Positions 53 through 47,807 of a stretch of 64,000 nt of DNA are shown in pieces. The stretch comes from an uncultured Pseudomonadota bacterium (lineage in GTDB: Bacteria; CALINM01), in NCBI GenBank assembly GCA_964540515.1, contig CAZIMS010000009.1, positions 28,391-92,390 on the forward strand. Reading direction: 5' to 3'. The notes under the pieces are model-generated. The model had not been told where the DNA came from. It ran no database searches and worked only from the letters and a program-made list of their open reading frames with translations. A program made the translations under genes and the position numbers. How positions within the stretch are numbered: position 1 is the stretch's first letter; the number at the start of each line of letters is the position of its first letter.

Positions 53-469
53 TTATACAACTGCTATCTTACCCTTTTCTCCAGTTCTTATACGAACTAC
101 ATCTTCTATCGGCATAACAAATATCTTACCATCTCCTGCCTTTCCTGTCTTATTAACATCAATAATTGTTTTTATAACTTCCTTAACTTTTTCATCATCT
201 ACAACTATAAATAGCATTTTTTTGGGAACGTAAAGAGCTGGTTTTGGCAGAGAATGTTCTAATGCGTAGGTTGAAGGGGTAGGTACTACCTTAATATTTC
301 CTGGGAAACAGTCGGAAAGCTCAGTATCTACAGTTTCCACAAGAGAGCCCCTCTGCTTACCTCTTCCCTCAACACTTTGCAAGGTCATTGAAGGAACACC
401 TATGTTTTCTAAGGCTCTTTTAGTAAGCTCCACCTTATCTCTTCTGATTATTGCGCATATCTCTTTCAT
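53..469 (-). CDS. nifI2: PII-family nitrogen regulatory protein, NifI2-like (138 aa, extended loop)
   Basis: GlnB/PII-like sequence (GRGKQRG..., C-terminal GDGKIFV...IRTGEKG); 4-nt overlap with the upstream PII gene; embedded in nif operon. Confidence 0.7.
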   Translation of the reverse strand: MKEICAIIRRDKVELTKRALENIGVPSMTLQSVEGRGKQRGSLVETVDTELSDCFPGNIKVVPTPSTYALEHSLPKPALYVPKKMLFIVVDDEKVKEVIKTIIDVNKTGKAGDGKIFVMPIEDVVRIRTGEKGKIAVV

Positions 470-783
470 AGCCCCTCCTCACCTGTACGGATAGTATAGG
501 CTGTCTCAACAGGACTAACAAAAACCTTACCATCACCAATAAATCCAGTTCTTGCCTTCTCCATAATGATATTAATTACCCTATCTACGTCTTTGTCCTC
601 AACAACCATCATAATTTGTAATTTAGGTAGCTCATCATAGTGAATTGGTCCTACCTGCAGTCCCTTCTGCTTTCCTCTACCAAAGACAGCCATCTTTGTC
701 AATGCTGGAAATCCTGCACCTTCTAAGGCAAGTACAACTTCCTGTTCTTTTTCTGGTCTTACAAAAGCCCTAATCATCTTCAT
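466..783 (-). CDS. nifI1: PII-family nitrogen regulatory protein, NifI1-like (105 aa)
   Basis: Classic PII motifs (FGRGKQKG, GDGKVFV, IRTGEEG); nif operon context. Confidence 0.75.
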   Translation of the reverse strand: MKMIRAFVRPEKEQEVVLALEGAGFPALTKMAVFGRGKQKGLQVGPIHYDELPKLQIMMVVEDKDVDRVINIIMEKARTGFIGDGKVFVSPVETAYTIRTGEEGL

Positions 784-799
784 CTTTAATTCCTCCTTT

Positions 800-1186
800 T
801 TATTTTGATTTTTCTAACCATGGTATAGACTTACTTTTTATTGTTTCTAACAATTTGCCAAGGTGATCAACAATTTTGTCATTTTCTTTAGCTTTTACTG
901 GCATTATCCCTCTTCTTGCAAGACGAGCAGCAGAAGGTCCTCCTATCTCGGTTATGTAAATTACCTTACAATCAGAGAGCTTACTTACCTTTGCTTCTAC
1001 AGCATCATCGTGTTCTGCCCCCATACCTCTGGTGCTTTCTACTTTTTCGTCTCTACCATCTCCAAAAAAACGGGACTCTAAGAACTTGTAACCTTCCTTC
1101 GTAACCTCATATATATCAAACCTTCCACATCGACCAAAATGCTCATTCGCATAGGTTCCATCTGTTGTTGCAAAAGCTACTTTCAT
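800..1186 (-). CDS. nifX: NifX/NafY-family dinitrogenase FeMo-cofactor binding protein
   Basis: MKVAFATTDG...HFGRC...FDIYEV N-terminus typical of the NifX/NifB C-domain family; overlaps nifEN stop by 4 nt. Confidence 0.7.
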   Translation of the reverse strand: MKVAFATTDGTYANEHFGRCGRFDIYEVTKEGYKFLESRFFGDGRDEKVESTRGMGAEHDDAVEAKVSKLSDCKVIYITEIGGPSAARLARRGIMPVKAKENDKIVDHLGKLLETIKSKSIPWLEKSK

Positions 1187-3765
1187 AATTCACCTCCTAA
1201 TATTTTATTTACAATTTCCCTCAAAAGGTTTATGCTCCCCTTATAACCAATAGTTGTTCTCTGGGCATGACCAAAATCACTATAAGAGGGATAGCCGTAT
1301 TGGAGTAAGGGTATGTTAAATTTTTTAGCTAAATGTCTTGCTCTTGAGTTTGAGATCCAGATGTCTGCATGGATATCTAAATCTGTTAAATCTCCAACAA
1401 TAACCTCCTCAGCACAAATTGAATGCTTACCTAAACTATCATTTGGTATCACACACTTTGTAACTTTCATCCCGCATTCTGTGAGAAATCTTGAAAACTG
1501 TATAGCCTGATCACTTTCAAGAGCCATGCTTGCCTTTTTACCGGAGATATGAAACTGGGCATCCTTTAGGAGATCTAAAAAAATCTTTCTTTCTCTTTCT
1601 ACCCTTTGGTTTGTCTTCTTTTTCGAAAGTAGTTGGAGAATATTTAAAAAATTCTCAGTACCAGATAGCCCAGTGATGTTATCTAATAATGTGTATCCTA
1701 TACCTGTTAGTTCCTTTAATTTTTTTCCGACACCTTCAAGGCTTAAACCAACAACTATGCTCCATTTGTTATCCCTAATTGATAAAATATCTTTTAAAGA
1801 TGTTCCTCCACAGGTAAGTCCACTAAAGGATTCTCTGCTTCCATCAAGACATCCTAAATCAGGGATCATCAATGGATAAAGGCCAAAGTCTTCTAATATG
1901 TACCTTATTTCATTAAAATCAGCAGGAGTTAAGTGAGAACCAAGAATCACATTAATTTTATTCTCACTCTTATTTTTTGGTATATCAAGTTGCTCATTAG
2001 TTGATAGTGTAATTAATGATTCAATAGCCTTTGCATAGCCTTCTTCTAATCCACCTTCATAGTCTGGTGTAGCTACGGTTACAATCTTTGTCTTATTGTC
2101 TAACGTTCTTACAGCACTTTCTAATAGGGCTCCTCTTACCTCAGAAAGGCTACTTGAGAGGACGGAGATTAGTTCGGGCTTCTGTTTATTAATAACATCA
2201 GAGATTGTTTCTTCTAAACGTTCTTCGCTACCTAAAATTACCTCTTCAGAAAAGAGTTTTGTGGTGTTTATTACTATTGGTTCGCAAAAATGTCTAATTA
2301 GCATAACCTTGCTTAAAAAACTACAACCCTGCGCTCCATGTATAATAGGTACTGTTTTATCTATTCCCTGAAAGGCTAAAGCTGCCCCAAGAGTAGAGGG
2401 TAGCTTAAAGGGGTCTTCGCTATAAGATTTTTTGTTATTCACTATCTTTGGAACTGGGAAGATAAAATTTTTTTTGAGATTACCATAAAACAATAAGGCC
2501 TTTGTAATATCATCAGCTAAGTTGAAAAAGCCTTTTATCCCTGCGTATTTTTTATCCCTTTCTTGATTAACATCAACGAAGGGGATATTTTCTTTTATTG
2601 CTAAGTATTTGTTTCTTCCGCCAGCAATGAGCATCTCTGCCTTTGTCTCGTTAAGAAGCCTTCTTATAGAGGAGGCATCGGAAGATTCTGTAACAATTGC
2701 ATCATTTCTTAAAAGCTCTTTTGCTTTTTTTTCATCTTCATAGCTCGACTTCTTAGTTATTAAAGCTGATACCTCAATACCCATATCTCTCAAGGCCGAT
2801 ATTAGAGACCAGCTCTTCAAACCACCAGAATATAAAACAGCCTTTTTCCCCTTAAGTATTTCATAATCCTTAAGCCCTTCCTCAACCTTTGACCTTAAAT
2901 CTCCAATTGCTGAGTCAACGTTTTTCTCAAAGGTAGGGTTATTAAACTTTTTTGCTATAGTTCGTAGACTCTTAGTTATCTCTGTTGGACCATAAAAGGA
3001 TACATCTACATAATCTATGTTATATTTACTTTCCATTGCCTCAGCAACATTAATAAGAGCTCTGCCGCAGAAAAGCAAGTTTAGCCTTGCTCTGTGGGCA
3101 TATCTTATCTCATCAAAGCTTGCTTTTCCGGTAATACGAGATAGCACCTTAAGCCCTACAGATGTTAAAATATCTTCTATCTCATCCATATCTCCTGCAA
3201 TATTGTATTCCCCTATGATATTTACATAGTCATCCGTTGGATGGGATGGCTCCTTTGTACCAATCACATATCTTAATAAGGCATCCCCTGCAATTCTATT
3301 ACCTAAATTTTTTGGACCAACAAATCCAGGAGCGATAACAGGCACAACTGTTTTCCCTAACCTTTTTGTAATATCAGAACAGACAGATTCAATATCTTCT
3401 CCGGTCAGTCCTGAGATACAGGTTGCATAAACAAAAACTCCAGAGGGGTTGTGTTTTTTTATCACTTCGGTTATGGCTTCTTTTAGCTTTTCTATACCAC
3501 CATAGACAATATCAAGCTCATTCATATCTGTAGTTAGTCCTTTGCAAAGAAAAGGTCCTTTGTCAGATCTTGCACCTCTGCCATCCCATGAGTAACTGCA
3601 ACAGGTTATGGGACCATGAATTATATGGGCTGCATCAGCTATGGGCTGTAAAACTATTAATGCTCCGTCTAAGGCACAGGACTCTCCACCACGGGAACGG
3701 CAAATCTTATGGTTTCCTTTTGATTCACAACTGTTGCTAAAGAGTGTCTCGTTGGCTAAGGTCAT
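1183..3765 (-). CDS. nifEN: Fused NifE-NifN nitrogenase cofactor biosynthesis scaffold (860 aa)
   Basis: N-terminal half NifE-like (HGPITCCSYSWDGRG), C-terminal half NifN-like (IIHGAQGCSFLSKVMLIRHFCEPI); single uninterrupted ORF. Confidence 0.85.
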   Translation of the reverse strand: MTLANETLFSNSCESKGNHKICRSRGGESCALDGALIVLQPIADAAHIIHGPITCCSYSWDGRGARSDKGPFLCKGLTTDMNELDIVYGGIEKLKEAITEVIKKHNPSGVFVYATCISGLTGEDIESVCSDITKRLGKTVVPVIAPGFVGPKNLGNRIAGDALLRYVIGTKEPSHPTDDYVNIIGEYNIAGDMDEIEDILTSVGLKVLSRITGKASFDEIRYAHRARLNLLFCGRALINVAEAMESKYNIDYVDVSFYGPTEITKSLRTIAKKFNNPTFEKNVDSAIGDLRSKVEEGLKDYEILKGKKAVLYSGGLKSWSLISALRDMGIEVSALITKKSSYEDEKKAKELLRNDAIVTESSDASSIRRLLNETKAEMLIAGGRNKYLAIKENIPFVDVNQERDKKYAGIKGFFNLADDITKALLFYGNLKKNFIFPVPKIVNNKKSYSEDPFKLPSTLGAALAFQGIDKTVPIIHGAQGCSFLSKVMLIRHFCEPIVINTTKLFSEEVILGSEERLEETISDVINKQKPELISVLSSSLSEVRGALLESAVRTLDNKTKIVTVATPDYEGGLEEGYAKAIESLITLSTNEQLDIPKNKSENKINVILGSHLTPADFNEIRYILEDFGLYPLMIPDLGCLDGSRESFSGLTCGGTSLKDILSIRDNKWSIVVGLSLEGVGKKLKELTGIGYTLLDNITGLSGTENFLNILQLLSKKKTNQRVERERKIFLDLLKDAQFHISGKKASMALESDQAIQFSRFLTECGMKVTKCVIPNDSLGKHSICAEEVIVGDLTDLDIHADIWISNSRARHLAKKFNIPLLQYGYPSYSDFGHAQRTTIGYKGSINLLREIVNKILGGEL

Positions 3766-3775
3766 TAATAGCTCC

Positions 3776-4510
3776 TTAAGGTAGATTAAAGCCAGTGCTT
3801 GTTAAAATGTTTTTACCCTCTTGAGACATCAAAAAATCTATATACTTCTGAGCCATTTCTTTATTTTTTGAGTCCTTTATAATTGCGATGGCAAAAACTA
3901 TGGGTGAATGGGAGTTAGTATCTACTTTAAGCAAAAGATTTAGTTTATTTCTATTTTGATAAAACTCACTCATATATAAAAAAGCAGCTTCAACTTCTCC
4001 TCTCACTATGTAATCTGCAGCCTGTCTTACGTTCTCTACATATATTATTTTTTCAAGGAGTTCTTTTTTTAGGTTGTAATGATTCAACACTTCATCGGTA
4101 TATCTTCCTAAAGGAGATGTCTTTGGATTTGGGACAGCAATTTTTCTAAAGTTGGCCAGCTCTTTTATTGATTCCATAGGTTTTATGTTTTTGTTACCAG
4201 CTATAACAAGAGAGTTTTTCGCAAAGACCTTTGAGACATTCTTTTCTACTCTTCCAGTTTTTATGAGTTCTTCAATCTCCTTTAAGCCTGCGGAAGCAAA
4301 AATGTCTACTGGAGCACCTTTATCTATCTGAGTCTTTAAACTTCCTGACGGACCAAAGTGAAAATTAATCTTCATACCATAGATAGATTCAAATCTTTTA
4401 CCTATCAACAAGAAAGTGTCTTTAAGAGCGGTAGCCGAAGAGATATACATATCAGATGCAAGTACAAGGGAAGGCGTAAAAAATATTATAAATATCAGAG
4501 AAAAAATCAT
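3776..4510 (-). CDS. modA: Molybdate (possibly tungstate) ABC transporter periplasmic substrate-binding protein
   Basis: Signal peptide followed by ModA-like motifs (FGPSGSLKTQIDKGAPVDIFASAG); adjacent permease and ATPase. Confidence 0.75.
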   Translation of the reverse strand: MIFSLIFIIFFTPSLVLASDMYISSATALKDTFLLIGKRFESIYGMKINFHFGPSGSLKTQIDKGAPVDIFASAGLKEIEELIKTGRVEKNVSKVFAKNSLVIAGNKNIKPMESIKELANFRKIAVPNPKTSPLGRYTDEVLNHYNLKKELLEKIIYVENVRQAADYIVRGEVEAAFLYMSEFYQNRNKLNLLLKVDTNSHSPIVFAIAIIKDSKNKEMAQKYIDFLMSQEGKNILTSTGFNLP

Positions 4511-5238
4511 ATCCTGCCACCTGTGATTAATAATTCCGACTTTTTAAGTGGCATCTCAAGGGCTTCAAGATTATCAATTAGGCTTTCCTCAAAATCATAC
4601 TTGTGACTCAAATGTTTTATAGATCCCATGGAATAAAAAATAATTTTGTCAGACATAAATATAGCCTCTGACATGTCATGGGTTACAAGAACAACTGGTA
4701 TGTTTAAACATCTCTTTATCTCTAATACAAGCTCTCTCATATTACTTTTTAATTTGCTATCAAGCATGCTAAAGGGCTCATCAAGAAGAAGTAGAGATGG
4801 TTCACCAATTATTGCCCTTGCCAAAGCCACCCTTTGCTTCTGTCCTCCTGATAATTCATGGGGGTAATGGTTTTCATAGCCAAAAAGCCCCATTTTGTTA
4901 ATAAGGCTTTGAACTTTTTTTTCATCCTTTTCTTTCCTTATACCATACTCAATGTTTTGTCTTACTGTCATATGGGGGAAAAGTGATAGATTTTGACTTA
5001 CATAACCTATCTTTCTTTTTTGGGGAGGGATGTTTATCTTTTTTTCTGAATCGAAAAAGATGGTATCTTCGCAAATAATTTTACCAGAATCAGGTTTAAC
5101 AAAGCCTGCTATCATATTAATAGTTGACGTTTTTCCAGCACCTGAGGGACCAAAAAGTACTACTAACTCATTACCGATCTCCCAAGATATATTGATCTCG
5201 AATTTTAACATACGCTTCTTTATGTCTATTTTTAGCAT
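4507..5238 (-). CDS. modC: ABC transporter ATP-binding protein (molybdate ModC-like, no TOBE domain)
   Basis: Walker A GPSGAGKTS, signature LSGGQKQR, Walker B LLLDEP. Confidence 0.75.
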   Translation of the reverse strand: MLKIDIKKRMLKFEINISWEIGNELVVLFGPSGAGKTSTINMIAGFVKPDSGKIICEDTIFFDSEKKINIPPQKRKIGYVSQNLSLFPHMTVRQNIEYGIRKEKDEKKVQSLINKMGLFGYENHYPHELSGGQKQRVALARAIIGEPSLLLLDEPFSMLDSKLKSNMRELVLEIKRCLNIPVVLVTHDMSEAIFMSDKIIFYSMGSIKHLSHKYDFEESLIDNLEALEMPLKKSELLITGGRI

Positions 5239-5918
5239 GGTCTTACGCTCCTTTCGGAGAGTTTAAGAGACAAGAGAACAGCAATTATGCTAAAGAGACT
5301 ATAGAAAGCAACAATCAAGTTTGCTCTGTCCCACTCTCCACTAACCACTAATGAGTAAATCATAATTGGCATAGTTTCTGTCTTGCCCGGTATATTTCCT
5401 GCGAAGATTAGTGTTGCCCCAAACTCGCCGAGAGCCCTCACAAAGGAGATTATGAAACCTGTTAAAAATCCTTTCCTTATAAGTGGAAAAATAATTTTGA
5501 AAAAAGTCTCTCCCTCTGAGTGACCAAGAGAGTATGAAGTCTTGATAATATTTTCATCAATAGATTCAATAGCTGTCCTAACTGTCTTAACCATAAGTGG
5601 TAGAGAAACCACATAAGCGGCAATAACTGCTGCCTGCCATGTAAACATTAAGTTTAACCCTGTCCATCTATAGATATAAGAACCGATTATACCGTTTTTG
5701 CCTAATAGTATGATTAGGTAAAATCCAACAATTGTAGGTGGCATCACCATAGGCAGTGTTAACAATGAATCAATTAAGTTTTTGCCAAAGAAGTTTTTTC
5801 GTGCGAGGATATAGGCAAGTGCTGTACCTGTTATAGCCACAAATAGAGTTGATATAGTAGCTACTCTAAGTGATAGAAAGAAAGCGGTTAGAATATCCTC
5901 ATCCATATAAAACTCCAT
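5232..5918 (-). CDS. modB: ABC transporter permease (molybdate ModB-like)
   Basis: Multi-pass membrane protein with the inner-membrane-component EAA-like loop (LGEFGATLIFAGNIPGKTET). Confidence 0.8.
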   Translation of the reverse strand: MEFYMDEDILTAFFLSLRVATISTLFVAITGTALAYILARKNFFGKNLIDSLLTLPMVMPPTIVGFYLIILLGKNGIIGSYIYRWTGLNLMFTWQAAVIAAYVVSLPLMVKTVRTAIESIDENIIKTSYSLGHSEGETFFKIIFPLIRKGFLTGFIISFVRALGEFGATLIFAGNIPGKTETMPIMIYSLVVSGEWDRANLIVAFYSLFSIIAVLLSLKLSERSVRPC

Positions 5919-5921
5919 AGC

Positions 5922-6815
5922 TCATAGGTTTTCACAATACTCTATCCCAAAAAGGGCATTAAGAGCCTCATACTCAATATCTTTGTCTTCTCCAAGCTTT
6001 CCAAAGGCATCAGATCTACATTTGGTACAATGGGACATTTGAGGCATGTACTTTTGTGCTGCTGAACGGGCAATATATATATCATGACAGCTCGGTTTTA
6101 CAATTTGGCTCATCTCTCCTTGAGGGATTAGGCCAATAATATTTTGTGTGTAAGCTCCGCAGGAAGATACAAATTGGGATATTTCCTCAACCTCACTGCT
6201 ATTTATACCTGGCATAAGTACCGTGTTTATCTTGACCAAACATCCCTTAGATACAGCCTTTATTAACCCCTCTTTCTGGCTTGCTACTATTAGTTCTGCT
6301 GCTTCTTCTTGGGAGTAAGTTTTATTATTTTTTATAGCAAAGGAGTATATTTTGTTAGCAGTGGAAGGGCGAAGAGTGTTAATAGTGATTGTGATGCTAT
6401 CAACCCCAGCATCAACCAACTCATCTAACTTCTCGGGAAGGAGAAGTCCGTTAGTGGAGACGCAAAGAACCATGTCGCAGAACTCTTTTTTTACTGATCT
6501 GAAAAATTCAAATGTTTCTTCATTGGCTAAAGCATCTCCCGGACCTGCTACGCCAATTACACGTAAAGTACTATCTCTTTCTGCAAGCAACCTCAACCTA
6601 AATAGTGCTTCATCAACAGTTAAAACCCTTGATGTCACACCAGGGCGAGACTCATTAACACAGTCGTATTTACGTACACAATACCGACACTTAATATTAC
6701 ATTTTGGGGCGATTGGTATATGAATCCTGCTAAATTTGTTATGGGCTTCTGCAGACAAGCAGGGGTGAGATAATGCTATTTTTTTTGATTTCAATGAAGA
6801 AACATTTGATTTCAT
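5922..6815 (-). CDS. nifB: Nitrogenase cofactor biosynthesis radical-SAM protein NifB (core domain only, no NifX-like C-terminal domain)
   Basis: Radical SAM CxxxCxxC (CNIKCRYC), NifB-like flanking sequence, 297 aa. Confidence 0.88.
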   Translation of the reverse strand: MKSNVSSLKSKKIALSHPCLSAEAHNKFSRIHIPIAPKCNIKCRYCVRKYDCVNESRPGVTSRVLTVDEALFRLRLLAERDSTLRVIGVAGPGDALANEETFEFFRSVKKEFCDMVLCVSTNGLLLPEKLDELVDAGVDSITITINTLRPSTANKIYSFAIKNNKTYSQEEAAELIVASQKEGLIKAVSKGCLVKINTVLMPGINSSEVEEISQFVSSCGAYTQNIIGLIPQGEMSQIVKPSCHDIYIARSAAQKYMPQMSHCTKCRSDAFGKLGEDKDIEYEALNALFGIEYCENL

Positions 6816-6825
6816 TTTATACCCC

Positions 6826-8334
6826 CTATCTTATTAAGTCAAAATTTGGACCATCTATGGACTGTCTATCTAACTCTTCCAGTATGGTATTGACAACCTG
6901 AATTAGGAAATTGAGAGTGCCTTGATAACCAATTATTGGTATTCTGTGGAGATGATGTCTATCTTGAATGGGAAACCCAACCCTTACAAGAGGCGTTTTA
7001 GTGTCTCTCCAAAGAAATTTTGCCTGTGAGGGTCCAAAGATAAGGTCGCAGGGCTGTTCAAAAAGGGCTGAACGAAGATGCCACATATCTTTACCTGCGT
7101 ATACATTGCAACCTTTACCAAAGGAACTTTTTTCTAGTAGCTCCTTAGCTTTTAGCTCAAAATCTTTGCCACCATTGGTGCAAAGAATATGAAGAGGATA
7201 CATACCCACTTCTAAGCAAAAACTAATAAGCCCCAAGACAATATCAGGATCGCCTATTATTGCTACCTTTTTCCCGTGTAGGTATGACTGAGAATCTATT
7301 AAGGCATCGAGTAATCTTCCCCTCTCCATTTCTAACTCTTCAGGGATTTGTAACCCCATAATTTTGGAAAGAGTCTCAAGTATATAATCCGTATTCTTCA
7401 CGCCTATTGGGTAGGGCAAAGAGATTGTCTCCTGTAGCCATTCACTTTTTATGTGTTCCATGGTTTTTTCTGTGGAAAAGTGCATTAGTGAGATAGTCGT
7501 CTTTGAGTTTATAGCGTCAAAGAGATCAGCAAGTTTTGTCCCGCCTGTATATAGATTGTACTCACCGGTTAGAGGAGAATCAAAGGAATCACTTGTATCC
7601 CCTAAAACTATGTGTGATATTTTCATTAAGTCTAATATCCGTTTTATCTCCCTAATATTTGCAGGATATGTCTCAAAACCGGTTATAACGTTTATGCGAT
7701 TCTTAGGCATATCCTTTTGTTTAACAATGCTTAAGATACCCTTCATCATATTGTCATAACCAACTATATGGGAACCAACAAAGCTTGGTGTATGAGCAAA
7801 GGGTATTAAGATATCTTGAGGTATTTTATTTTTCTCCCGTGCTGTCCTAATAAAGGCATTCAGGTCATCGCCAATAACCTCAGCCATACAGGTGGTTGAG
7901 ACAGCAATCATTTGAGGCTTGTAAAGGGCATAGGCATTTTCTAAACCTTCTAACATATTGGAAAGACCACCATAAACGGCTGCATCCTCTGTCATAGATG
8001 TGGACACAGCTGGAACAGGCTCTTTATAATGTCTGCTAAAATAGGATCTAAAATAGGCAACACAGCCTTGGGAACCATGAACAAAAGGTAGAGTTTTCTC
8101 AAACCCTAAAGCAGCATAGACAGCACCAAGAGGTTGACAGGCCTTTGATGGGTTAATCGTAACTGCCTGTCTCGCAAAATTTTTCTCTTTATATTCAGCG
8201 CCTTTTGTCCATTCTTTTACTCGCTCAACCTCTTCGTTAGAGCAAGGTGCCTCAAAGGCCTTTTTCTCTTCAAATTGTTTAATATACTCTTCTTCTTTAA
8301 ATAATTGGTTATGGTCTTTGACAGTTGTTTTCAT
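6826..8334 (-). CDS. nifK: Nitrogenase MoFe protein beta chain
   Basis: NifK-like sequence with P-cluster cysteine region ([12 protein letters not shown]); overlaps nifD by 4 nt. Confidence 0.93.
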
Positions 8335-9758
8335 TTTTTCCTCCTAATCAAATTCCACATGGGGCTATTAATTGCCATATCCATGTCTCTTGCAAAGACA
8401 GCAAACCCATCTACTCCATGATAGGGACCCGAATAATCCCAAGAGTGCATCTGTCTAAAGGGCACGCCCATTTTATGGAAAGCATATTTTTCCTTTACAC
8501 CTGAACCAATAAGGTCAGGTCTCAACACCTTTGTAAACTCTTCTAACTCGTATGGAGTTGCATCATCGTATATGATAGTACCCTCTTTAAGTTCGGGATA
8601 TGTTCTTTTATAATCATCGTTATGAGCGAACTCATAGCCAGTTCCAATTACCTCCATACCAAGATCTTCATAAGCCCCTATAGGATGTCGAGGCCTTAAG
8701 CCGCCCACATAAAGCATGACTCTCTTACCTTCTAATCTTGGTCTGTATTCCTCTATGACAGCATCAGTAATTTTTTTGTAATCCTCTATAGCCCTCTCTG
8801 TTTTCTCTTTTACCCTGTCATCAAAAAAGGAGGCAATTTTTCTCATACTCTCGTAAATCTTTGTGGGACCAAAAAAGTTAAACTCTACCCATGGAATACC
8901 AAAATTTTCTTCCATAAATCTGCAAATGTAGTTCATAGATCTATAACAATGGATAAGGTTAATCTTTGCTTTGGAGGCAATACGCATCTCGTTTAGACTT
9001 GCATCTCCTGTCCACTGAGCAATTACTCTTAATCCCATATCTTCCAGTATCTTTCTTGATGCCCAGGCATCACCGCCAATATTATAATCACCTATAATAT
9101 TTACATCATAAGGGGTTGATTTAGAGAAATCACCACCCTTTCCTAACACATAATCTCTTATAGCATCATTAGCGATATGGTGACCCAAAGATTGGGAGAT
9201 ACCTCTAAACCCTTCACATCTTACTGGAACTATAGGGATACCCAACTCTTTACTCATCTTTCTACAAACTGACTCAATATCATCACCTATTAAACCAACA
9301 GGACATTCAGACTGGATTGATATACCCTTTGCAAGAGGGAATAGCTCTTTTAACTCTCTTAAGATCTGTTCAAGCTTTTTATCTCCACCAAAAACTATAT
9401 CCTTTTCTTGATAATCACTGGTAATGTGGACAGTTCCAAAATTGTCTATACCACTAATTCCATTAGAATAGTTTCTTCTGGACCACCAGCTATACTGACC
9501 GCAACCAATAGGACCATGACTTATATGAAGCATGTCCTTCACGGGTCCCCATACAACGCCCTTAGAACCAGCGTAGGCACAACCTCTAATTGTCATAACG
9601 CCAGGACGTGATTTAACATTGCTTTTTACCTGACAGGTGGAACAAGTTCCGGTAGGGTCGTTTGGTTTGATATGCAAAGCCCTTTCCTTCCTCGTTTTCT
9701 CAGGATATATGGATAGGACTTCGTCTATAATTTTTTGTGTCCTTTCAATATTACTCAT
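8331..9758 (-). CDS. nifD: Nitrogenase MoFe protein alpha chain
   Basis: NifD-like sequence ([31 protein letters not shown]). Confidence 0.93.
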
Positions 9759-9782
9759 AGTCTCTTTTCCTCCTTTTATTTA

Positions 9783-10649
<867 letters not shown>

Positions 10650-10655
10650 TTATTG

Positions 10656-10671
10656 AGCATCAATCGTGCCA
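10656..10671 (-). promoter_or_regulatory. Sigma-54 (RpoN) -24/-12 promoter element upstream of nifH
   Basis: Minus-strand reading TGGCACGATTGATGCT matches TGGCACG-N4-TTGCW with correct GG/GC spacing; about 35 nt upstream of nifH ATG. Confidence 0.55.
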
Positions 10672-10724
10672 TTCAATATCTTATTGAAAAAATTGAAAAA
10701 TTAAATTTTAAGGAGAAGATTTTT

Positions 10725-10749
10725 TTACAAATTTGTAACATCTATTACA
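10725..10749. promoter_or_regulatory. Candidate enhancer/UAS: perfect palindrome TTACAAATTTGTAA overlapping a TGT-N10-ACA motif
   Basis: TGTAACATCTATTACA (10734..10749) fits the NifA-type TGT-N10-ACA spacing, about 65-80 bp upstream of the -24 element; short AT-rich motifs can arise by chance. Confidence 0.3.
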
Positions 10750-11127
10750 TTTTTGTGGTTAAAACTATTCTGTATTGGGCTTAAAGACAATAGGACTTAA
10801 TAAAATGATTAAACTCCTAATAATTAAATGCCCTATCAATGAATATGGAGCTTTAATTAAAAAAAGCTTTTTAAAAGAGGAAGGATTATAGGAAAAGTTT
10901 AAAGCTCTTACTAAATCTGACTTAGTCTTTCCGATTTAATAAGAAAAATTAAGTTGCCATCATTATTTAGTATCTTACTTTCTCTAAATGACTGTATAGA
11001 AATTTTTTACGAAGTGAAAAAGAAAGCCTGAAATTATTAAATGTAAAAATATAGAATATCTCAACACTGAAGGGCTTTTTATAGAAGGATGGGAATTCAG
11101 TAAGAACTAATTAGAAGGGAGGAAAAG

Positions 11128-12452
11128 ATGATGAAAAAATTGGTAGTTTCGGTAGTGTTCTTTGCTGTCTTTATGATGTGTGGTAATGCTTTTTCAGCAG
11201 GTTTTGCTCTTATTGAGCAGAGTGTTAGTGGGTTAGGTAATGCCTATGCAGGTGGAGCAGCTCAAGCAGAGGATGCAACAACAATCTTTTATAATCCAGC
11301 AGGTATGACGAGGCTAAATGATCAGTTTATAGCAGGCCTACATTTTATCTCACCCAGTGCAAAGTTTAAAGATAATGGTTCTTCAAGACTCAATCCTTTA
11401 ATAGGGTCTCTTGGAACCAATAATGGTGGTGATGGGGGTGTTAATGCACTTGTTCCTAATATATTTTAAAAAAGATTAGCGACAAGGGAGCCTTTGGTTT
11501 GGGTGTCAATGTTCCCTTTGGTCTCGGCACTGAGTACCCCAGTGATTGGATAGGTAGATATCACGCAATAAAATCAGATATGATGACTTTAAACATAAAT
11601 CCATCCTTTGCCTATAAGGTTACTGACAAATTTAGTAAAGGTACAGGTGTAAGTGTTCAATATATAAAGGCAGAGCTTTCAAGTGCTGTTGATCAAAAGT
11701 TAATTTTAGCCTCGCAGGGAGCACCAGCTGGTGTTTGGGGAGCTGCTTCTGATTCATATTCCTCAATGGAAGGTGATGGATGGGGATATGGATATAATTT
11801 GGGTTTATTATATGAACTTTCCAAGGATACAAGGTTTGGTTTAGCCTATCGTTCAAGAGTTCAACAGTCCTTAGAGGGTGATATAAAGTTTTCAAATGTT
11901 CATACTCTTCTCTCACCAAGTCCAAACTTCCAAAATCGTTCAATTAAGGCCGATGTAGATTTACCCGATACAGTATCAGCCTCCTTTTATTCTAAAATAA
12001 CAGCCAAACTGGCCCTTATGGCAGACGTTACTTGGACTAAGTGGAGTAGGTTTAAAGAACTTAGGGTAAAAAGTACAAATGGTGCCTCTGATATTCTCAC
12101 AACAGAAAATTGGGATGATAATTATAGATACTCTTTAGGTTTAAGTTATTATGCTGATAATAAATCCACCTTCAGATTTGGTGTTGCCTATGATGAGACA
12201 CCTGTTCCAAGTCCTCAATATAGAACACCAAGAATACCAGATGGTAGTAGGAAGTGGATAGCTGCTGGTTTTGGCCATAAATTTTCAGAAAAAATTTCCT
12301 TTGATTTAGGAGCTGCCTATCTCTTTGTAAATGACCCAAAAATAAATCAGATTGCAACTCCGACTAACGAAAATGCAGTTAGAGGCAATTTAATAGGTAC
12401 CTATGACTGCAATGTGAAGATATTGAGTGCTCAAGTTAATTATAACTTCTAA
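11128..12452 (+). pseudogene. FadL/OmpP1-family outer-membrane transporter, interrupted by a frameshift near 11457..11475
   Basis: ORFs 11128..11469 (frame 1) and 11499..12452 (frame 3) are contiguous parts of one FadL-like protein; break sits in a T4/A6 homopolymer run. Confidence 0.6.
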
Positions 12453-12466
12453 GATTTAGAGGTTAG

Positions 12467-12496
12467 GAGGGCTTTAAAGCCCTCTCCTCTTTAAAC
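12467..12496 (+). terminator. Putative intrinsic terminator downstream of the FadL-like gene
   Basis: Perfect palindrome GAGGGCTTTAAAGCCCTC followed by a modest T-rich stretch. Confidence 0.4.
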
Positions 12497-12677
12497 AATA
12501 AAACACTCAATTAATTTGGAGCTTTGCTAAAATACTAATTAAGCGCTATTTGTATAATTAAGATGAGGTATCAAGCCCTAACTCTATTTTCTTTAACCGT
12601 ATCTTTACAAATCTTTTTTATCTCTCTTAATCTTTTTAGTATGAATGTACCTGCAATAACATTGGAAAATAAATTTT

Positions 12678-12706
12678 TTGACTACTTTAAAACAATAACT
12701 TAAAAT
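12678..12706 (+). promoter_or_regulatory. Sigma-70-type promoter for tRNA-Sec
   Basis: TTGACT, 17-bp spacer, TAAAAT; predicted start coincides with the mature tRNA 5' end at 12713. Confidence 0.55.
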
Positions 12707-12712
12707 ATTAAT

Positions 12713-12802
12713 GGAAGTGCAAGGGCTCCTGGTGGGCTCCACGGACTTCAAATCCGATGTTCCTCGAGAGGGGAAGGTGGGTTCGATTCCCATGCACTTC
12801 CG
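12713..12802 (+). tRNA. selC: Selenocysteine tRNA (anticodon TCA)
   Basis: 8-bp acceptor stem GGAAGTGC/GCACTTCC with G discriminator, 6-bp D-stem, anticodon loop CTTCAAA, long variable arm, GTTCGATTCC T-loop; strong resemblance to bacterial selC; no encoded CCA. Confidence 0.8.
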
Positions 12803-12824
12803 TAATTTAAAGGAGGTCTGCGTT

Positions 12825-13022
12825 ATGTTTGGATTAGGGTTACCTGAGCTTTTAGTTATATTGGTGATAATTATTCTTGTATTTGGTGTTGGCAAGCTAC
12901 CTGAGGTAGGAGCTGGTATTGGCAAGGCAATTAAAAACTTCAAGAAGTCTGTTAATGAGCCTGATGCCATAGATGTTACACCAAAAAATGAGGCAAAGAA
13001 AGAAGAAGAAAAAAAGGCGTAA
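12825..13022 (+). CDS. tatA: Twin-arginine translocase subunit TatA/E
   Basis: [27 protein letters not shown]...; AGGAGG 8 nt upstream of the ATG; the listed ORF 12711..13022 is an upstream extension through the tRNA. Confidence 0.85.
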
Positions 13023-13042
13023 GTTTATTTCAGAGTTTCTCT

Positions 13043-14026
13043 TTGGTCACTAAGGTTTTTAGTATATCTGATAATATCAATCAGATTATAGCTCAATGTA
13101 TAAGTATCCTAAAAATGGGTGGTCTCGTAGCCTTTCCAACAGAAACAGTGTATGGATTAGGCGCAATGGCCTTTGACCTTACAGGAGTTAACAAAATTTA
13201 TGAGGTTAAGGGAAGACCCAAAGACAACCCTCTAATATATCATGTATCTTCAATAGACTGGATAGAGAAGCTTGCCAAACTATCAGAGAAGGAGTATAAA
13301 ATCATAGAAAAATTCTTTCCAGGTCCATTAACATTGGTACTAAACAGCAAGATAGATAAGAGTTTTACTTTTAATCTAAATACCATCGCCATAAGAATGC
13401 CTGATAATCTTATTGCCCTTAAACTTATAAAAGAATGTGGTTCCCCTATAGTAGCCCCCAGTGCTAACCTCTCGGGAAGACCAAGTCCCACAAAGGTTGA
13501 GCACGTGATAGAAGATTTCTTGGGTAAGATTGATGCAATTATTGATGGTGGAGAGACTGTATATGGTATTGAGTCAACAGTTATAGATGCTACTTCTTAT
13601 CCCTATAGACTATTGAGATTAGGTGCTACTCCAATAGAAGATATTAGGGAGTGTGGATTTGAGATTCAAGCAGTTGACAGTAGTGAGTTGTTAAAAAGGT
13701 CTCCTGGAACAAGGTATAGACATTATGCACCAAGAGGAAAGTTAATAATAATTGAGAAGATAGAAGATTTAAAAAAACATAAAGAGGTTATGGAATATAA
13801 AAGATGCGGCTATATGGGTATTAGTGTTTTTGAAGGTATTACTATTTGTCAAAAAGAGATTTTTAGAGATGACAGGGAGTATTCGAGATATCTTTATGCT
13901 ACTTTAAGGTATTTTGATGCCCTAAATATAGAAGTAATATTTGCTGAGGCTTTACCAGAAGTGGGGTTAGGACGGGCAATAAATGATAGATTACGTAGAG
14001 CCAGGGGAGAAGAACCTAATTTATAA
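13043..14026 (+). CDS. tsaC: L-threonylcarbamoyladenylate synthase (Sua5/TsaC, YrdC domain plus Sua5 C-domain)
   Basis: VAFPTETVYGLG motif, 327 aa; start codon uncertain (non-ATG in track). Confidence 0.8.
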   Translation: MVTKVFSISDNINQIIAQCISILKMGGLVAFPTETVYGLGAMAFDLTGVNKIYEVKGRPKDNPLIYHVSSIDWIEKLAKLSEKEYKIIEKFFPGPLTLVLNSKIDKSFTFNLNTIAIRMPDNLIALKLIKECGSPIVAPSANLSGRPSPTKVEHVIEDFLGKIDAIIDGGETVYGIESTVIDATSYPYRLLRLGATPIEDIRECGFEIQAVDSSELLKRSPGTRYRHYAPRGKLIIIEKIEDLKKHKEVMEYKRCGYMGISVFEGITICQKEIFRDDREYSRYLYATLRYFDALNIEVIFAEALPEVGLGRAINDRLRRARGEEPNL

Positions 14027-14046
14027 AAAGAGCTTAACCATATACA

Positions 14047-15822
14047 TTAATTTAAATAGTATATTAGCAAGTAAAGCAATAGAAAAAAGGTTACGTATAA
14101 AACAGTTGTACCTATAGGCCAGTGTTTTACCATGTCTAAAGGATATTTTTCTATGATGGTTTTTAGCTCTTTTTCTTCCCTTTTTGCACCTAATATGTAT
14201 AAAAGGCTCTCAAGGATTATTTTGGAAGCAAGCAAAGGATTTCTCGAGAACCATATAAACCATTTAAGGATATTTCTATAAAAGATCTTCTCAATGAGCT
14301 TATTTAGCTCTTCTTGGAAGAAATAAAAGGCTTTTAAGATTAGTCTTGTACCTTTCCTATAAAACCAGTCTGTGTCTAAGATAATATAGTAATTTTTTGC
14401 ATCTAAATTCTTTAGGTAAAGAGTAAAAGCAACAAAACCACCCAAAAAAAGCTGAATCACAAAGATTATGTGTTCAATAGTATAGGGTTCATAAGAAACT
14501 TTATAGGGAAGAGCTTGATATAAAATATTTGGGTAGATGCCAATAATAAGGCAGAGTGATGATGCTAAAAACATCGCTATTGTCATATTTGTTGGGATAG
14601 ATTTTGTAATTATTTCTTCCTTTTTCTTTGAGAAAAATGCCAAATAGGGCAACTTTAGGGCTACTGAGATAAAAGTGCCTGTTGAAGCAAGATTTAGCAT
14701 TAGCCAAGCAAATACATTATGTTCTTCTTGGCTTGCTGTTATTGTTAATGATTTACTTACAAAACCAGAAAGAAGGGGAGCACCCGAGATAGAAAGGGCA
14801 CCTATGGCGTAGAATATAAAGATATTTTTTAATTTTGATAACAATCCACCCAACTCGTTAAGCCTTTCTTTACCAGTTGAGTAAATTATTGCTCCAACAG
14901 ACATAAAAAGTAGTCCCTTATATATTATATGAGTAAAGGCATGGGAGATGGCACCATTTATTGCTAAAGGAGAGCCTAACCCTACCCCTACCACCATAAA
15001 TCCTACCTGACTTATAATGTGATAAGATAGAAGCCTTCTCATATCAAGGACCATAAAGGCATAAATTACACCATAAACTGCCATTAATGATCCTAAAATT
15101 ATAAGGAGCTCAAAGCCTGAAAAAAATCTTATAAGAACGTATACAGCGCTTTTTGTAGTATAGGCAGATAAAAAAACTGAGCCACCAATTGTTGATTGGG
15201 GATAGGAGTCAGGCAGCCATGCAGAGAAGGGGATTGATGCGGCGTTTATTAAAAATCCCACAAGTATTAAATAGCTTGATAAGCCTTTGGAGTTAAAATT
15301 GTTAAAAGAGAAAAGGCCTGATTCTTTATAAATAAGGATTATGCCTGATAAAAGGAAAAAGCCACCCAAAAGATGTATAAGGAGGTATCTAAGCCCAGCC
15401 TCTTTTGAAGAAGAGTTTTTAGCTTGCCAAATTATAAAGGTAGAAAAGACTGCCATAAGCTCCCAAAAGAAGAAGAGGGATAGAAAATCACCAGCGAAGA
15501 CAAGACCTAAAGAACTTCCACCATAGATAAGAGGAAATATCTTTTCCGCTTTGTCTTTACTATGGAGATTATAGATAATTCCGATAAAGGCGATGATTAG
15601 AAAAACGTAAAAGAAGGGAAGGTTTATCCTATCGTAATGAAATAGCTTAATACTTTGGTCTAAGAAATGGTAAGCAATAACATCATCCTGTAAGCTGAAA
15701 AAGTGAATTAATGATATAATGGGGGTGACAACTAAAACAATATCTCCAAACTTCTTAGGTAGAAGAGTTATCACCAGAGCAGATAAGAAAAAAATGATAT
15801 AAGGAGGCATAAGCTCAATCAT
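14047..15822 (-). CDS. Mrp/complex-I-type proton-conducting membrane subunit (MrpA/NuoL-like, 591 aa)
   Basis: Polytopic membrane protein with NuoL/M/N-like core in an Mrp gene cluster. Confidence 0.65.
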   Translation of the reverse strand: MIELMPPYIIFFLSALVITLLPKKFGDIVLVVTPIISLIHFFSLQDDVIAYHFLDQSIKLFHYDRINLPFFYVFLIIAFIGIIYNLHSKDKAEKIFPLIYGGSSLGLVFAGDFLSLFFFWELMAVFSTFIIWQAKNSSSKEAGLRYLLIHLLGGFFLLSGIILIYKESGLFSFNNFNSKGLSSYLILVGFLINAASIPFSAWLPDSYPQSTIGGSVFLSAYTTKSAVYVLIRFFSGFELLIILGSLMAVYGVIYAFMVLDMRRLLSYHIISQVGFMVVGVGLGSPLAINGAISHAFTHIIYKGLLFMSVGAIIYSTGKERLNELGGLLSKLKNIFIFYAIGALSISGAPLLSGFVSKSLTITASQEEHNVFAWLMLNLASTGTFISVALKLPYLAFFSKKKEEIITKSIPTNMTIAMFLASSLCLIIGIYPNILYQALPYKVSYEPYTIEHIIFVIQLFLGGFVAFTLYLKNLDAKNYYIILDTDWFYRKGTRLILKAFYFFQEELNKLIEKIFYRNILKWFIWFSRNPLLASKIILESLLYILGAKREEKELKTIIEKYPLDMVKHWPIGTTVLYVTFFLLLYLLIYYLN

Positions 15823-45545: not shown

Positions 45546-47807
45546 CTACACAAAAATATCTTCTCTTTTAATATTGTATTTTCTCATCAGATTATGAAAA
45601 GTTGGTCTTGGTATTCCTGCAAGCTCTGCGGCCTTTTTTACATTTCCCATAGTTTGTTTGAGATATTTCTTAAGTAAGTTTCTTTCAAAAATGGCCAGTT
45701 GTTCTTCTCTCTGTTCCCATAAATTCTTATTGGAATTAATAAAGTTAACTTCTGGTGTTATAGATTGTATGTGGATAGGAAAATCTTTTAGTTTTAGCTC
45801 ATCTCCTTGGGCAAGAATTATTGCTCTTTCTACAACATTAGCAAGCTCTCTTATGTTTCCAGGCCAATCGTAGGCCTTTAGGTGCTTTATAATCTCTTTC
45901 TCGTAAGATATTATCTTCTTACCTAACTTTTTTGAGTTGGTCTCTATAAGATAGTGTAGAAAATATGGCAGGTCTTCCTTTCTATCTCTCAAAGGGGGTA
46001 GATGAATACTAAATACATTCAACCTATAATATAAATCTTCTCTAAATTTTCCTTCTTCTATGAGCTGTTCTAAGTTTCTGTTTGTTGCAGCAATGACTCT
46101 GGCATCTATCTTCTTAACTTCGTTACTACCTACCGGTCTAATCTCGCCGTTTTGAAGAACTCTTAATAACTTTGTCTGAAGATTAATGGGCATATCTCCT
46201 ATCTCATCAAGAAATATTGTACCATTATGTGCTACTTCAAATAATCCTTTTTTATTTTCCAAGGCTCCGGTAAAAGCACCTTTTACATGACCAAAAAGCT
46301 CACTTTCTAATAAATTTTCTGTTAAGGTAGTACAATTAACAGTTATCATAGGTCTATCATTTCGGGACGATTTCTGATGTATAAGTGTTGCTACCATCTC
46401 TTTACCGGTTCCACTTTCACCTCTAAGTAGTACTATAGCATTAGTGTGGGCAACTTTTTCAATTTGTTCCCAGATCTCTCTCATTTTGTGTGTTTTACCA
46501 AGTATAAAGCTAAACTCTTTATCTTTATATAGTTCTTTTTGAATTATCTTGTAATCATTTAAAAGATTAATATTGTTGACTGAAATCTTGTTTAACAAGT
46601 AAGGAAGACACATTTCTATCTCAGCTAAACCCATAACTACTGCTCGTGCCTTCTCATAACAGTTGTCATAACCACAGGCACCACAATTTAAGTTTTCACC
46701 ACCATTGTATGTCTTCATCTCATCTAAAATGCTCTTAATATCTTCTTCTTTTGGCTCCACAAAGATTAGTCTGTCTTTAGGAGAAAAAGTCTTCTCAAGG
46801 CCTATCTTAGGTATTACCTTCTCTTCATTCTCCCCTTGAAAATAATAATCTTTAATATATCTTTTTACCCTTTCTGCCCTCTCATAAATTGTTCCTCTAT
46901 CTTTCATCATTGGACCATCTATACAACCCTTGCAAAAAAGTATGTCTACAAATCTTGGGTTAATCTCGTTTTTTTTGAGAGAATGGAGGAAACTTAGGAC
47001 CTCATCTTTTCCATCAATCACAAGAATATCACTATCAAGAATGTCTGTTCCTATTGAAGCAGTTTTTAGAAGTCCGCCTGAAAGTGCAAATGCCCTGCCA
47101 ATTCGTGGAAAATATCCATCAAAATCTGAAAAACTTTTTCTTTTTGGGTTTATATCTCTTATAATAAACTCTTCGTCAAGCTCTTTGAAAGTTAATACTG
47201 AATCAATTGCGTAACCATCATCTTTTATCTCGCTTTTTTTTGCTATACAAGGCCCAATAAAAAAAACAAGAGCTTTATCAATCTTTTCTTTAATTAACCT
47301 TCCCATGGCAATCATAGGTGATGCGATGGGTATTAGATTATTAATTAGCTCTGGATAGAACTTAGCTATTAAATTTACTATAGCAGGACAGGGAGATGAG
47401 ATATAGGTCTTTTTTTCCGTTGTCTTAGCATTAATATTAATAATAAACTCTTTGTATTTATCAATTATAATCTCAGCACCATAGGCAGCTTCATACACAT
47501 AATTAAATCCTAATTTTCTTAGGGCAGAAACTACTTGAAGAGGGTGTACATCTTGGTAATAAGAGACAAATGAAGGGGCAAGGAGGGCAACTGTTTTTTT
47601 ATTCTTCTTCAGCGCCTCTTCTATTGTTAGACCATTTTGTATTTCTTTAGCTTCCTGTGAACAGACTTTTAAACAGTTGCCACAGACTATGCAGTTTTCT
47701 TGAATTACATAAGCTTGTTCGTTGTAAACCTTTATAGCTTTAACTGGGCATCCTCTAATACAGGAATAACATTTTTTACAAAGGCCCTCTTTTGTCTGTA
47801 TAATCAT
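45546..47807 (-). CDS. Sigma-54-dependent transcriptional activator with N-terminal 2x[4Fe-4S] ferredoxin and [FeFe]-hydrogenase H-cluster-like domain
   Basis: Two CxxCxxCxxxC motifs; hydrogenase-like motifs [23 protein letters not shown]; AAA+ sigma-54 domain ([15 protein letters not shown]); C-terminal HTH. Confidence 0.75.

Follow-up and report, generated by a model that had tools for sequence, protein, structure and literature searches.

The segment 12713-12802 on the + strand of the DNA analysed here (a stretch of 64 kb, called the window below) is in our reading a functional selC gene that specifies a canonical bacterial tRNA-Sec of the 8/5 type, served by a conserved sigma-70-type promoter and forming the probable first element of a selC-tatA(-tsaC) transcript. 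We give this reading a probability of about 0.9. The gene itself is ordinary and of the standard bacterial type, while the layout for its expression is mildly unusual. The features on which the reading rests are the following, numbered along the window.

12666-12677, + strand: A/T-rich tract AAAATAAATTTT, adjoining the -35 hexamer, a possible UP element as regards its inferred function
12678-12683, + strand: -35 hexamer TTGACT, invariant in seven loci of the lineage and in the more distant locus L030
12684-12700, + strand: promoter spacer, always 17 nt long, with many substitutions
12701-12706, + strand: -10 hexamer TAAAAT, invariant in the seven lineage loci, TAGGTT in L030
12707-12712, + strand: segment ATTAAT, the 6 nt between the -10 hexamer and the mature 5′ end, with T at -1 and G at +1
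12713-12802, + strand: selC, the tRNA-Sec gene, 90 nt including the discriminator G, supported by ARAGORN, RF01852, the 8/5 cloverleaf, covariation and conservation in the lineage
12713-12720 pairing with 12794-12801, + strand: acceptor stem of 8 Watson-Crick pairs, followed by the linker AA
12723-12728 with 12734-12739, + strand: D-stem of 6 bp, all canonical, with a 5-nt loop (CUGGU)
12748-12750, + strand: anticodon TCA, reading UGA, in the 7-nt loop CUUCAAA; the anticodon stem has 4 bp with an A.A mismatch (A27.A43) on top
12760-12775, + strand: variable arm, a 6-bp stem with a GAGA (GNRA) loop
12777-12793, + strand: T-arm of 5 bp (G.U, U-A, G-C, G-C, G-C)
12803-12824, + strand: trailer of the tRNA and leader of tatA, 22 nt, AU-rich, with T at position 74 and AAGGAGG at 12810-12816
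12825-13022, + strand: tatA (TatA/E), 65 aa, PF02416 and TIGR01411
13043-14026, + strand: tsaC/sua5 (L-threonylcarbamoyladenylate synthase), PF01300 and PF03481, TIGR00057 at 214 bits against a cutoff of 123

A tRNA-SeC is called by ARAGORN at 12713-12802 (+), with the anticodon tca at position 36. The Rfam tRNA-Sec family RF01852 matches 12713-12801 over the full length of the model (positions 1-91 of 91), with a score of 74.7 bits against a gathering score of 47 (E=1.7e-13). Both predictors thus return the Sec isotype and the UCA anticodon, as had been proposed in an earlier note on this DNA; the size of roughly 90 nt given there agrees with the ARAGORN tRNA, which is exactly 90 nt long with its discriminator. 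This is the sole tRNA detected by ARAGORN, and the sole Rfam family, in the whole 64-kb window, and a permissive Rfam scan (E<=1) of positions 10600-14100 yielded nothing beyond it. The discriminator, G73, corresponds to the G at 12802 and is also G in 85 of 89 sampled tRNA-Sec; the CCA end is absent from the gene sequence. By the established biology of tRNA-Sec, SerRS would charge such a molecule with serine by way of G73 and the long variable arm, SelA would turn the tRNA-bound serine into selenocysteine with the selenophosphate donor coming from SelD, and SelB would bring the product to UGA codons that have a SECIS hairpin after them.

When the molecule is drawn as an 8/5 cloverleaf, every pair of the acceptor, D, T and variable-arm stems is canonical and the acceptor/T branch amounts to 13 bp; A27.A43, the top pair of the anticodon stem, is the only non-pairing one among the stems. 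The 8-bp acceptor stem and the long variable arm that had been described in the earlier note are both there. The folding energy of this cloverleaf is -38.0 kcal/mol, compared to -32.5 and -37.3 for 9/4 versions and -41.2 for the unconstrained minimum-energy fold. A 9/4 fold can form, since A9 and U81 can pair, and it is the one used by the Rfam alignment. It was rejected on the basis of covariation in a sample of 89 tRNA-Sec from metagenomes, indexed from their ends: the first T-stem pair of the 8/5 fold is canonical in 86 of the 89 sequences (G-C in 47, G.U in 37), against 32 of 89 for the alternative ninth acceptor pair. Covariation therefore favours the 8/5 architecture.

The same sample helps to place the smaller traits of the molecule. 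A D-arm of 6 bp with a 5-nt loop occurs in 6/89 sequences, and one of 6 bp with a 4-nt loop in 49/89. The apparent mismatch C.U at the sixth position of the anticodon stem is counted as normal, because it is the commonest state there (42/89). At the A27.A43 position pairing is found in 78/89, and within the sample A.A is confined to this lineage. Aligned with E. coli selC (b3658, sequence taken from NC_000913.3), the tRNA shows compensatory differences in the acceptor, T and anticodon stems; a BLAST search of the window tRNA against E. coli genomes returned no match. The two genes have in common the UCA anticodon, the 8/5 branch, G73, the 6-bp D-stem and the long variable arm, as well as the first five bases GGAAG, the G.U first pair of the T-stem and a sigma-70 promoter of their own. 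They differ in that E. coli selC encodes its CCA and has a 4-nt D-loop, whereas the gene in the window has no CCA, a 5-nt D-loop, the A27.A43 mismatch and a variable arm capped by a GNRA loop.

Relatives of the locus were found via homologues of the neighbouring TsaC, and then by an exact-match scan of the GTDB species genomes. Two contigs are identical to the window, L001 (Logan SRR7473445) and L002 (GCA_900096875.1), and three loci have a TsaC with 73% (L011), 67% (L010) and 65% (L003) identity; in each of these the tRNA-Sec lies directly upstream of tatA. The 5′ half of the tRNA is matched exactly in three further MAGs from the GTDB species genomes (L012, L013 and L014), with an identical layout. 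The tRNA-Sec-tatA arrangement is absent from relatives whose TsaC is just 53-55% identical. Identity to the window is 97-100% for the tRNA, 72-80% for tatA DNA, 59-74% for the promoter segment (-35 to -1), and 20-47%, effectively unalignable, for the DNA further upstream. The only substitutions in the tRNA among relatives are a change from U.G to C-G in the variable stem and exchanges of the loop between GAGA, GUAA and GCGA, all of the GNRA class. Such a pattern bears the mark of strong purifying selection on a structured RNA, and because the tRNA is kept to this degree next to a far more variable tatA, we argue that it is in use.

As to the organism, IleRS has relatives at 70-87% identity that are all uncultured, and the next matches, at ~55%, are Geobacter, Desulfacinum and MAGs labelled Deltaproteobacteria or Thermodesulfobacteriota. 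Within GTDB the same tRNA occurs in MAGs that bear the labels Deltaproteobacteria bacterium, Proteobacteria bacterium or bacterium. Judged from these similarities, the organism belongs to an uncultured lineage allied to the former Deltaproteobacteria.

The promoter TTGACT-17-TAAAAT, which the earlier note had already assigned to the tRNA, occupies 12678-12706 and is the only site with a 10/12 match to the consensus within 11000-14500. Matches of at least 9/12 are, as a class, at chance frequency in this region (12 versus 11.9 expected). The two strands of the 64 kb together have 43 sites of at least 10/12, which puts the number expected at a suitable offset from the tRNA at ~0.002. We hold the sigma-70-type promoter to be real chiefly because the hexamers and the 17-nt spacing are invariant in the seven species-level loci, where the spacer and the upstream DNA have diverged. 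The arrangement is TTGACT-17-TAGGTT in L030. The A/T tract at 12666-12677 has the same sequence in L011, L003 and L013 as in the window and a similar one in L014, and the DNA beyond it is unalignable. On this comparative evidence, selC appears to be driven by a conserved sigma-70-type promoter.

Downstream, the ATG of tatA comes 22 nt after the tRNA, which agrees with the direct adjacency that had been claimed before. The 65-aa product scores 66.6 bits with TIGR01411 (cutoff 53.9) and 55.3 bits with PF02416 (cutoff 21, E=3.8e-15), and carries the N-terminal transmembrane helix motif expected of TatA/TatE. Its start, MFGLGLPEL, is conserved in the seven lineage loci (with MFGLGFPEL in L012) and reads MFGIGMPEL in L030. 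From the end of the tRNA to the tatA ATG there are 20-24 nt in all members of the lineage, most of them taken up by the ribosome-binding site. tatA follows the tRNA in 8/8 loci and tsaC follows tatA in 6/8; the genes upstream of the tRNA vary, with fadL in the window, a 344-aa gene in L003, a tRNA-Thr in L014 and a SCPU-domain gene in L012. Among ~100 unrelated metagenome loci, only L030 has tatA downstream of the tRNA-Sec, and the selC-tatA pairing thus appears nearly specific to this lineage.

Because the scan showed no terminator-like site, and the 22-nt gap is too short to hold a promoter, we read selC-tatA(-tsaC) as one transcript with the tRNA in first position. The tRNA-Sec and tatA are thus probably co-transcribed, in a unit that tsaC probably closes. 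Transcription reading through from the fadL-like gene upstream is also possible, since no terminator was detected. The tRNA would be freed from this precursor by a cut after G73 in the U/A-rich trailer, made by RNase Z or RNase E, and its CCA would be added enzymatically after release. The T at position 74 is invariant; T74 and an AU-rich trailer suit RNase Z, which would act on CCA-less precursors, or RNase E. A functional rationale for the linkage may be that Tat exports periplasmic selenoenzymes (formate dehydrogenase, [NiFeSe] hydrogenase), but this is speculation.

It is unlikely that selC and tatA are independent units, with a tRNA transcript that stops short of tatA and a separate promoter for tatA. 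Such an organisation has a precedent in E. coli selC, which is monocistronic (PMC12439589); in L030 the tRNA, with its CCA encoded, is 79 nt away from tatA, and weak or non-canonical promoters and terminators would escape a simple scan. However, the gap in the seven lineage loci is too short and too much taken up by the ribosome-binding site to accommodate them easily, the simple scan picked up neither a promoter-like nor a terminator-like site between 12706 and 12825 on the + strand, and a tatA promoter would have to sit within the invariant, G+C-rich tRNA. We therefore retain a common selC-tatA transcript.

Transcripts of this kind have counterparts. In the E. coli thrU-tyrU-glyT-thrT-tufB operon, the tRNAs share a transcript with a protein gene downstream of them and are freed by endonucleases. 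The Aquifex tufA2 operon is another case of a tRNA-mRNA operon (PMC12439589). In these two operons elongator tRNAs stand ahead of EF-Tu, whereas here a single tRNA-Sec stands ahead of a Tat subunit. In mycobacteria selC, selA and selB form one transcription unit with the tRNA-Sec first (PMC13449736). There, as in our reading of the window, the tRNA-Sec heads a transcript leading into protein genes and must be cut from an mRNA precursor; the mycobacterial unit differs in that the downstream genes belong to the Sec machinery and the CCA is encoded, while here the downstream genes are tatA and tsaC, with no sel gene nearby.

The earlier note had seen neither selA, selB or selD nor an obvious selenoprotein gene in the window, and the scans made here led to the same result. 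No SelA, SelB or SelD domain was found by Pfam in the window's ORFs of at least 90 aa, overlapping shadow ORFs being left out. A six-frame scan for ORFs continuing through one or two TGA codons gave no selenoprotein gene in the window; its two candidates inside real genes, nifD into nifK and nifB into modB, are ordinary gene junctions and were rejected as UGA-interrupted genes. An ORF with AIRS and AIRS_C domains at 62802-63788 (-) was considered as SelD, but is ThiL instead (TIGR01379 243 bits, cutoff 184; SelD model 66 bits, cutoff 125); nor is it a SelD truncated at an N-terminal UGA, as the frame upstream contains several stops other than TGA. A FeS protein and a cytochrome b at 61146-62805, which resemble formate-dehydrogenase beta and gamma subunits, were likewise set aside, as no catalytic (Sec-containing) subunit is adjacent; the best matches, to HmcB and HybA, are below cutoff. 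The window contains a nif cluster that encloses a modABC transporter, a split fadL-like gene, tatA and tsaC, an Mrp antiporter operon, feoAB, ileS-lspA-lgt, a regulator with a [FeFe]-hydrogenase domain adjoining hydEFG, aconitase, pabBC, the FeS protein with cytochrome b, and thiL.

Nor was a sel gene or a selenoprotein gene found in the flanks of the relatives L003, L012 and L013 (roughly 25 kb). This shortage of sel and selenoprotein genes around the locus, together with the A.A mismatch in the anticodon stem, could suggest a decaying relic, i. e. a non-functional tRNA gene in a lineage that has lost the use of selenocysteine. We consider this very unlikely. The near identity of the tRNA extends over seven species-level lineages in which the neighbouring coding DNA has fallen to 72-80%, and the substitutions are solely ones that keep the pairing and the GNRA class of the loop. 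The promoter is conserved too, and so is the A.A mismatch itself, which is thus no random lesion. As purifying selection argues for a tRNA in use, we infer that selA, selB and selD are located elsewhere in the genome. Recoding of UGA as selenocysteine is then to be expected in this uncultured, nitrogen-fixing, deltaproteobacterium-like lineage, and annotation may wrongly split or truncate its selenoprotein genes (formate dehydrogenase, hydrogenase, Hdr and similar).

A look-alike of another identity, either a selC* tRNA-Cys inserting cysteine at UGA or an allo-tRNA, is highly improbable. Molecules of both kinds are often caught as tRNA-Sec by ARAGORN-type searches and are known in anaerobic delta-proteobacteria (PMC5389517), and the tRNA in the window does have small oddities, the A.A mismatch and the 5-nt D-loop. 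However, selC* tRNA-Cys has U73, with A1:U72 in the opal forms with a UCA anticodon found in genomes with cysS* (PMC5389517), whereas here the discriminator at 12802 is G and the pair 1:72 is G-C. In allo-tRNAs the acceptor/T branch measures 12 bp, as 8/4 or 9/3 (PMC5389517), against the 13 bp (8/5) found here, and the RF01852 score is far over the threshold. The molecule is best taken as a genuine tRNA-Sec.

That the ORF 12711-13022 (103 aa) is a real, N-terminally extended TatA and the tRNA-like signal a coincidence can be dismissed, for although such an ORF exists mechanically and public gene calls on the identical contigs give a 96-aa TatA overlapping the tRNA, the stretch from the tRNA to the tatA ATG contains in-frame stops in L003, L010, L011 and L013, where the extension thus cannot be translated, the Pfam TatA match begins at residue 4 of the 65-aa version, the ribosome-binding site AAGGAGG is placed 8 nt before the ATG at 12825, and the tRNA match itself has E=1.7e-13. 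The frame is over-extended through the tRNA, as the earlier note had supposed, and the real TatA has 65 aa. An exact look-up of this 65-aa protein in public protein calls found no match, because those calls carry the 96-aa version. Public annotation is thus in error at this point: tatA, called with 96 aa through the tRNA, should be 65 aa long.

The distance between the promoter and the tRNA is short. From the -10 hexamer to G1 it measures 6 nt in four loci (the window, L003, L013, L014), 7 nt in three (L010, L011, L030) and 8 nt in one (L012). All of these loci have T at -1 and G at +1. The sigma-70 holoenzyme usually starts ~7 nt after the -10 element and prefers a purine that follows a pyrimidine; with a gap of 6-8 nt, the start is therefore predicted at G1 or 1-3 nt upstream of it. 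From promoter geometry, the primary transcript is predicted to have a leader that is likely at most ~3 nt long. Strictly leaderless transcription of the tRNA-Sec is possible, but with gaps of 6, 7 or 8 nt in the different relatives a strictly leaderless start would not be conserved; in L012, a purine 3 nt upstream of G1 is an equally good start candidate. T (U) at -1 is also the base preferred by bacterial RNase P. The earlier note had missed both the closeness of the promoter to the tRNA and the probable co-transcription of the tRNA with tatA.

An exploratory survey of promoter distance covered 93 unrelated tRNA-Sec loci, with 40 non-Sec tRNAs from the same loci as a control. A promoter of at least 9/12 with its -10 ending 5-9 nt from the tRNA 5′ end was found in 9 of the 93 loci, which fall into five sequence clusters, versus 0.9 loci expected from the density at other offsets (Poisson P ~6e-7). 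None of the 40 non-Sec tRNAs, a small control set, had a site of at least 9/12 at 5-9 nt; where they had such a promoter-like site, its distance was 10-78 nt. A test on the -10 alone, at 5-8 nt in all sampled loci, gave a weak enrichment (7 observed versus 2.8 expected, p=0.02), the signal of close promoters being clearer with full-promoter scoring.

In E. coli selC, the -10 ends 32 nt before G1, against 6 nt here; transcription starts at -25, and a non-canonical RNase P cut leaves the 8-bp stem (PMC5499578, PMC12439589). Starts at the mature end are known from other domains of life. Transcription of the eukaryotic tRNA[Ser]Sec gene (Trsp) begins at the first mature nucleotide and RNase P is unnecessary (PMC8744743); the same enzyme is unnecessary in Nanoarchaeum equitans, where tRNAs are leaderless and an upstream promoter sets the start (PMC10941002). 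The geometry found here predicts the same start, or nearly so. The difference is that those cases were established by experiment and involve Pol III or archaeal promoters, whereas here the promoter is of sigma-70 type, the start is predicted and the gap ranges from 6 to 8 nt among the loci. Our literature searches turned up no report of a start at the first mature nucleotide for a bacterial tRNA-Sec.

We put forward, tentatively and with rather less than even confidence, a broader proposal. From a promoter set against the gene, RNA polymerase would begin at the mature 5′ end itself or 1-3 nt away from it, both in this lineage and in at least five further bacterial tRNA-Sec sequence clusters, so that the 8-bp acceptor stem would be set by the choice of start site and not by a cut of RNase P as in E. 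coli; the transcript would run on into tatA, tying the supply of tRNA-Sec to Tat export. If the start-site prediction is true, bacteria would have a second means of forming the additional acceptor base pair of tRNA-Sec, and the leaderless tRNA-Sec gene of eukaryotes would have a bacterial parallel. The promoter set against the tRNA and the selC-tatA linkage are small, testable additions to known biology. A close promoter, at 10 nt, is also present at the tRNA-Thr of L014, itself a member of the lineage.

Upstream promoters were scored against the sigma-70 consensus at a survey of unrelated tRNA-Sec loci, with a score of at least 9/12 taken as a promoter. In nine metagenome loci (L024, L033, L048, L096, L097, L099, L108, L117 and L123), the -10 element ends 5-9 nt before the mature 5′ end of tRNA-Sec, compared to 0.9 such loci predicted from the density of off-position matches. 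These nine loci fall into five sequence clusters, several of them in G+C-rich DNA. No promoter at this distance (0/40) was scored on the non-Sec tRNAs of the same loci. It may be that bacterial tRNA-Sec genes recurrently have a short leader, or none at all.

Two relatives of the window locus, one a distant metagenome locus (L030) and the other a MAG locus of the same lineage (L014), were compared:

L030 1306-1760, minus strand: promoter, tRNA-Sec and tatA
L014 2229-2301, minus strand: tRNA-Thr(CGT) gene, about 90 nt upstream of tRNA-Sec

The more distant L030, of higher G+C content, retains the order promoter, tRNA-Sec, tatA. It departs from the window locus in four respects: a 79-nt gap between the last two, an encoded CCA, a G.G clash at the eighth acceptor pair and a standard, 4-nt D-loop. 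In L014, the tRNA-Thr(CGT) has a promoter-like site of its own, with 10 nt between the end of the -10 and the tRNA. Short leaders may therefore not be Sec-specific, and could instead be general to tRNAs of the window lineage.

Public gene calls for TatA were found on two contigs identical in sequence to the window:

L001 1440-1730 and L002 1333-1623 (both identical to window 12732-13022): TatA as called

Both records give a protein of 96 aa, its start placed within the tRNA-Sec gene, and this over-extension has now propagated to protein databases. When the true TatA, of 65 aa, was searched for there by exact sequence, no match came back, because the databases carry the over-extended call.

Upstream of tRNA-Sec lies a split gene:

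window 11128-12452, plus strand: FadL/TodX-type outer-membrane channel gene (Pfam profile match)

It is broken into one reading frame of 113 aa, which matches profile positions 4-97, and a second of 317 aa, which matches positions 111-421. The frames join at 11460-11500, and the first ends at a TAA (11467-11469) within the run TTTTAAAAAAG. The identical split is present in two further public assemblies, L001 and L002. A one-off assembly error seems less likely; the split may reflect a real frameshift, a pseudogene or a slippery homopolymer.

Other loci of the window were annotated as follows:

61146-62805, plus strand: 4Fe-4S protein (HmcB/HybA-like) and cytochrome b pair
45546-47807, minus strand: 753-aa fusion protein gene, adjoining hydF, hydE and hydG
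47808-51304, minus strand: hydF, hydE and hydG (H-cluster maturases), all three above NCBIfam cutoffs
53-10619, minus strand: compact nif cluster

The FeS/cytochrome b pair is preceded by pabB and pabC, and no catalytic subunit adjoins it. The cytochrome resembles the formate-dehydrogenase gamma subunit. The FeS protein, with a weak Tat-signal match, is likely a Tat substrate encoded in the same window as tatA.

In the 753-aa protein, 4Fe-4S ferredoxin motifs and the H-cluster domain of an [FeFe]-hydrogenase (Fe_hyd_lg_C; TIGR04105-like, 200 bits) are joined to an AAA+ activator domain of the sigma-54 type and to a Fis-type HTH. The protein resembles an enhancer-binding protein that senses hydrogen or redox state. 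Within the window, no catalytic hydrogenase lies close by.

The nif cluster comprises nifH, nifD, nifK, nifB, a nifEN fusion of 860 aa, a nifX-like gene and genes for two P-II proteins, with a modABC-like molybdate transporter embedded inside. Its nifB is short, at 297 aa, and scores below the NCBIfam cutoff. One of the P-II proteins, of 138 aa, carries an insertion and is NifI1/NifI2-like.
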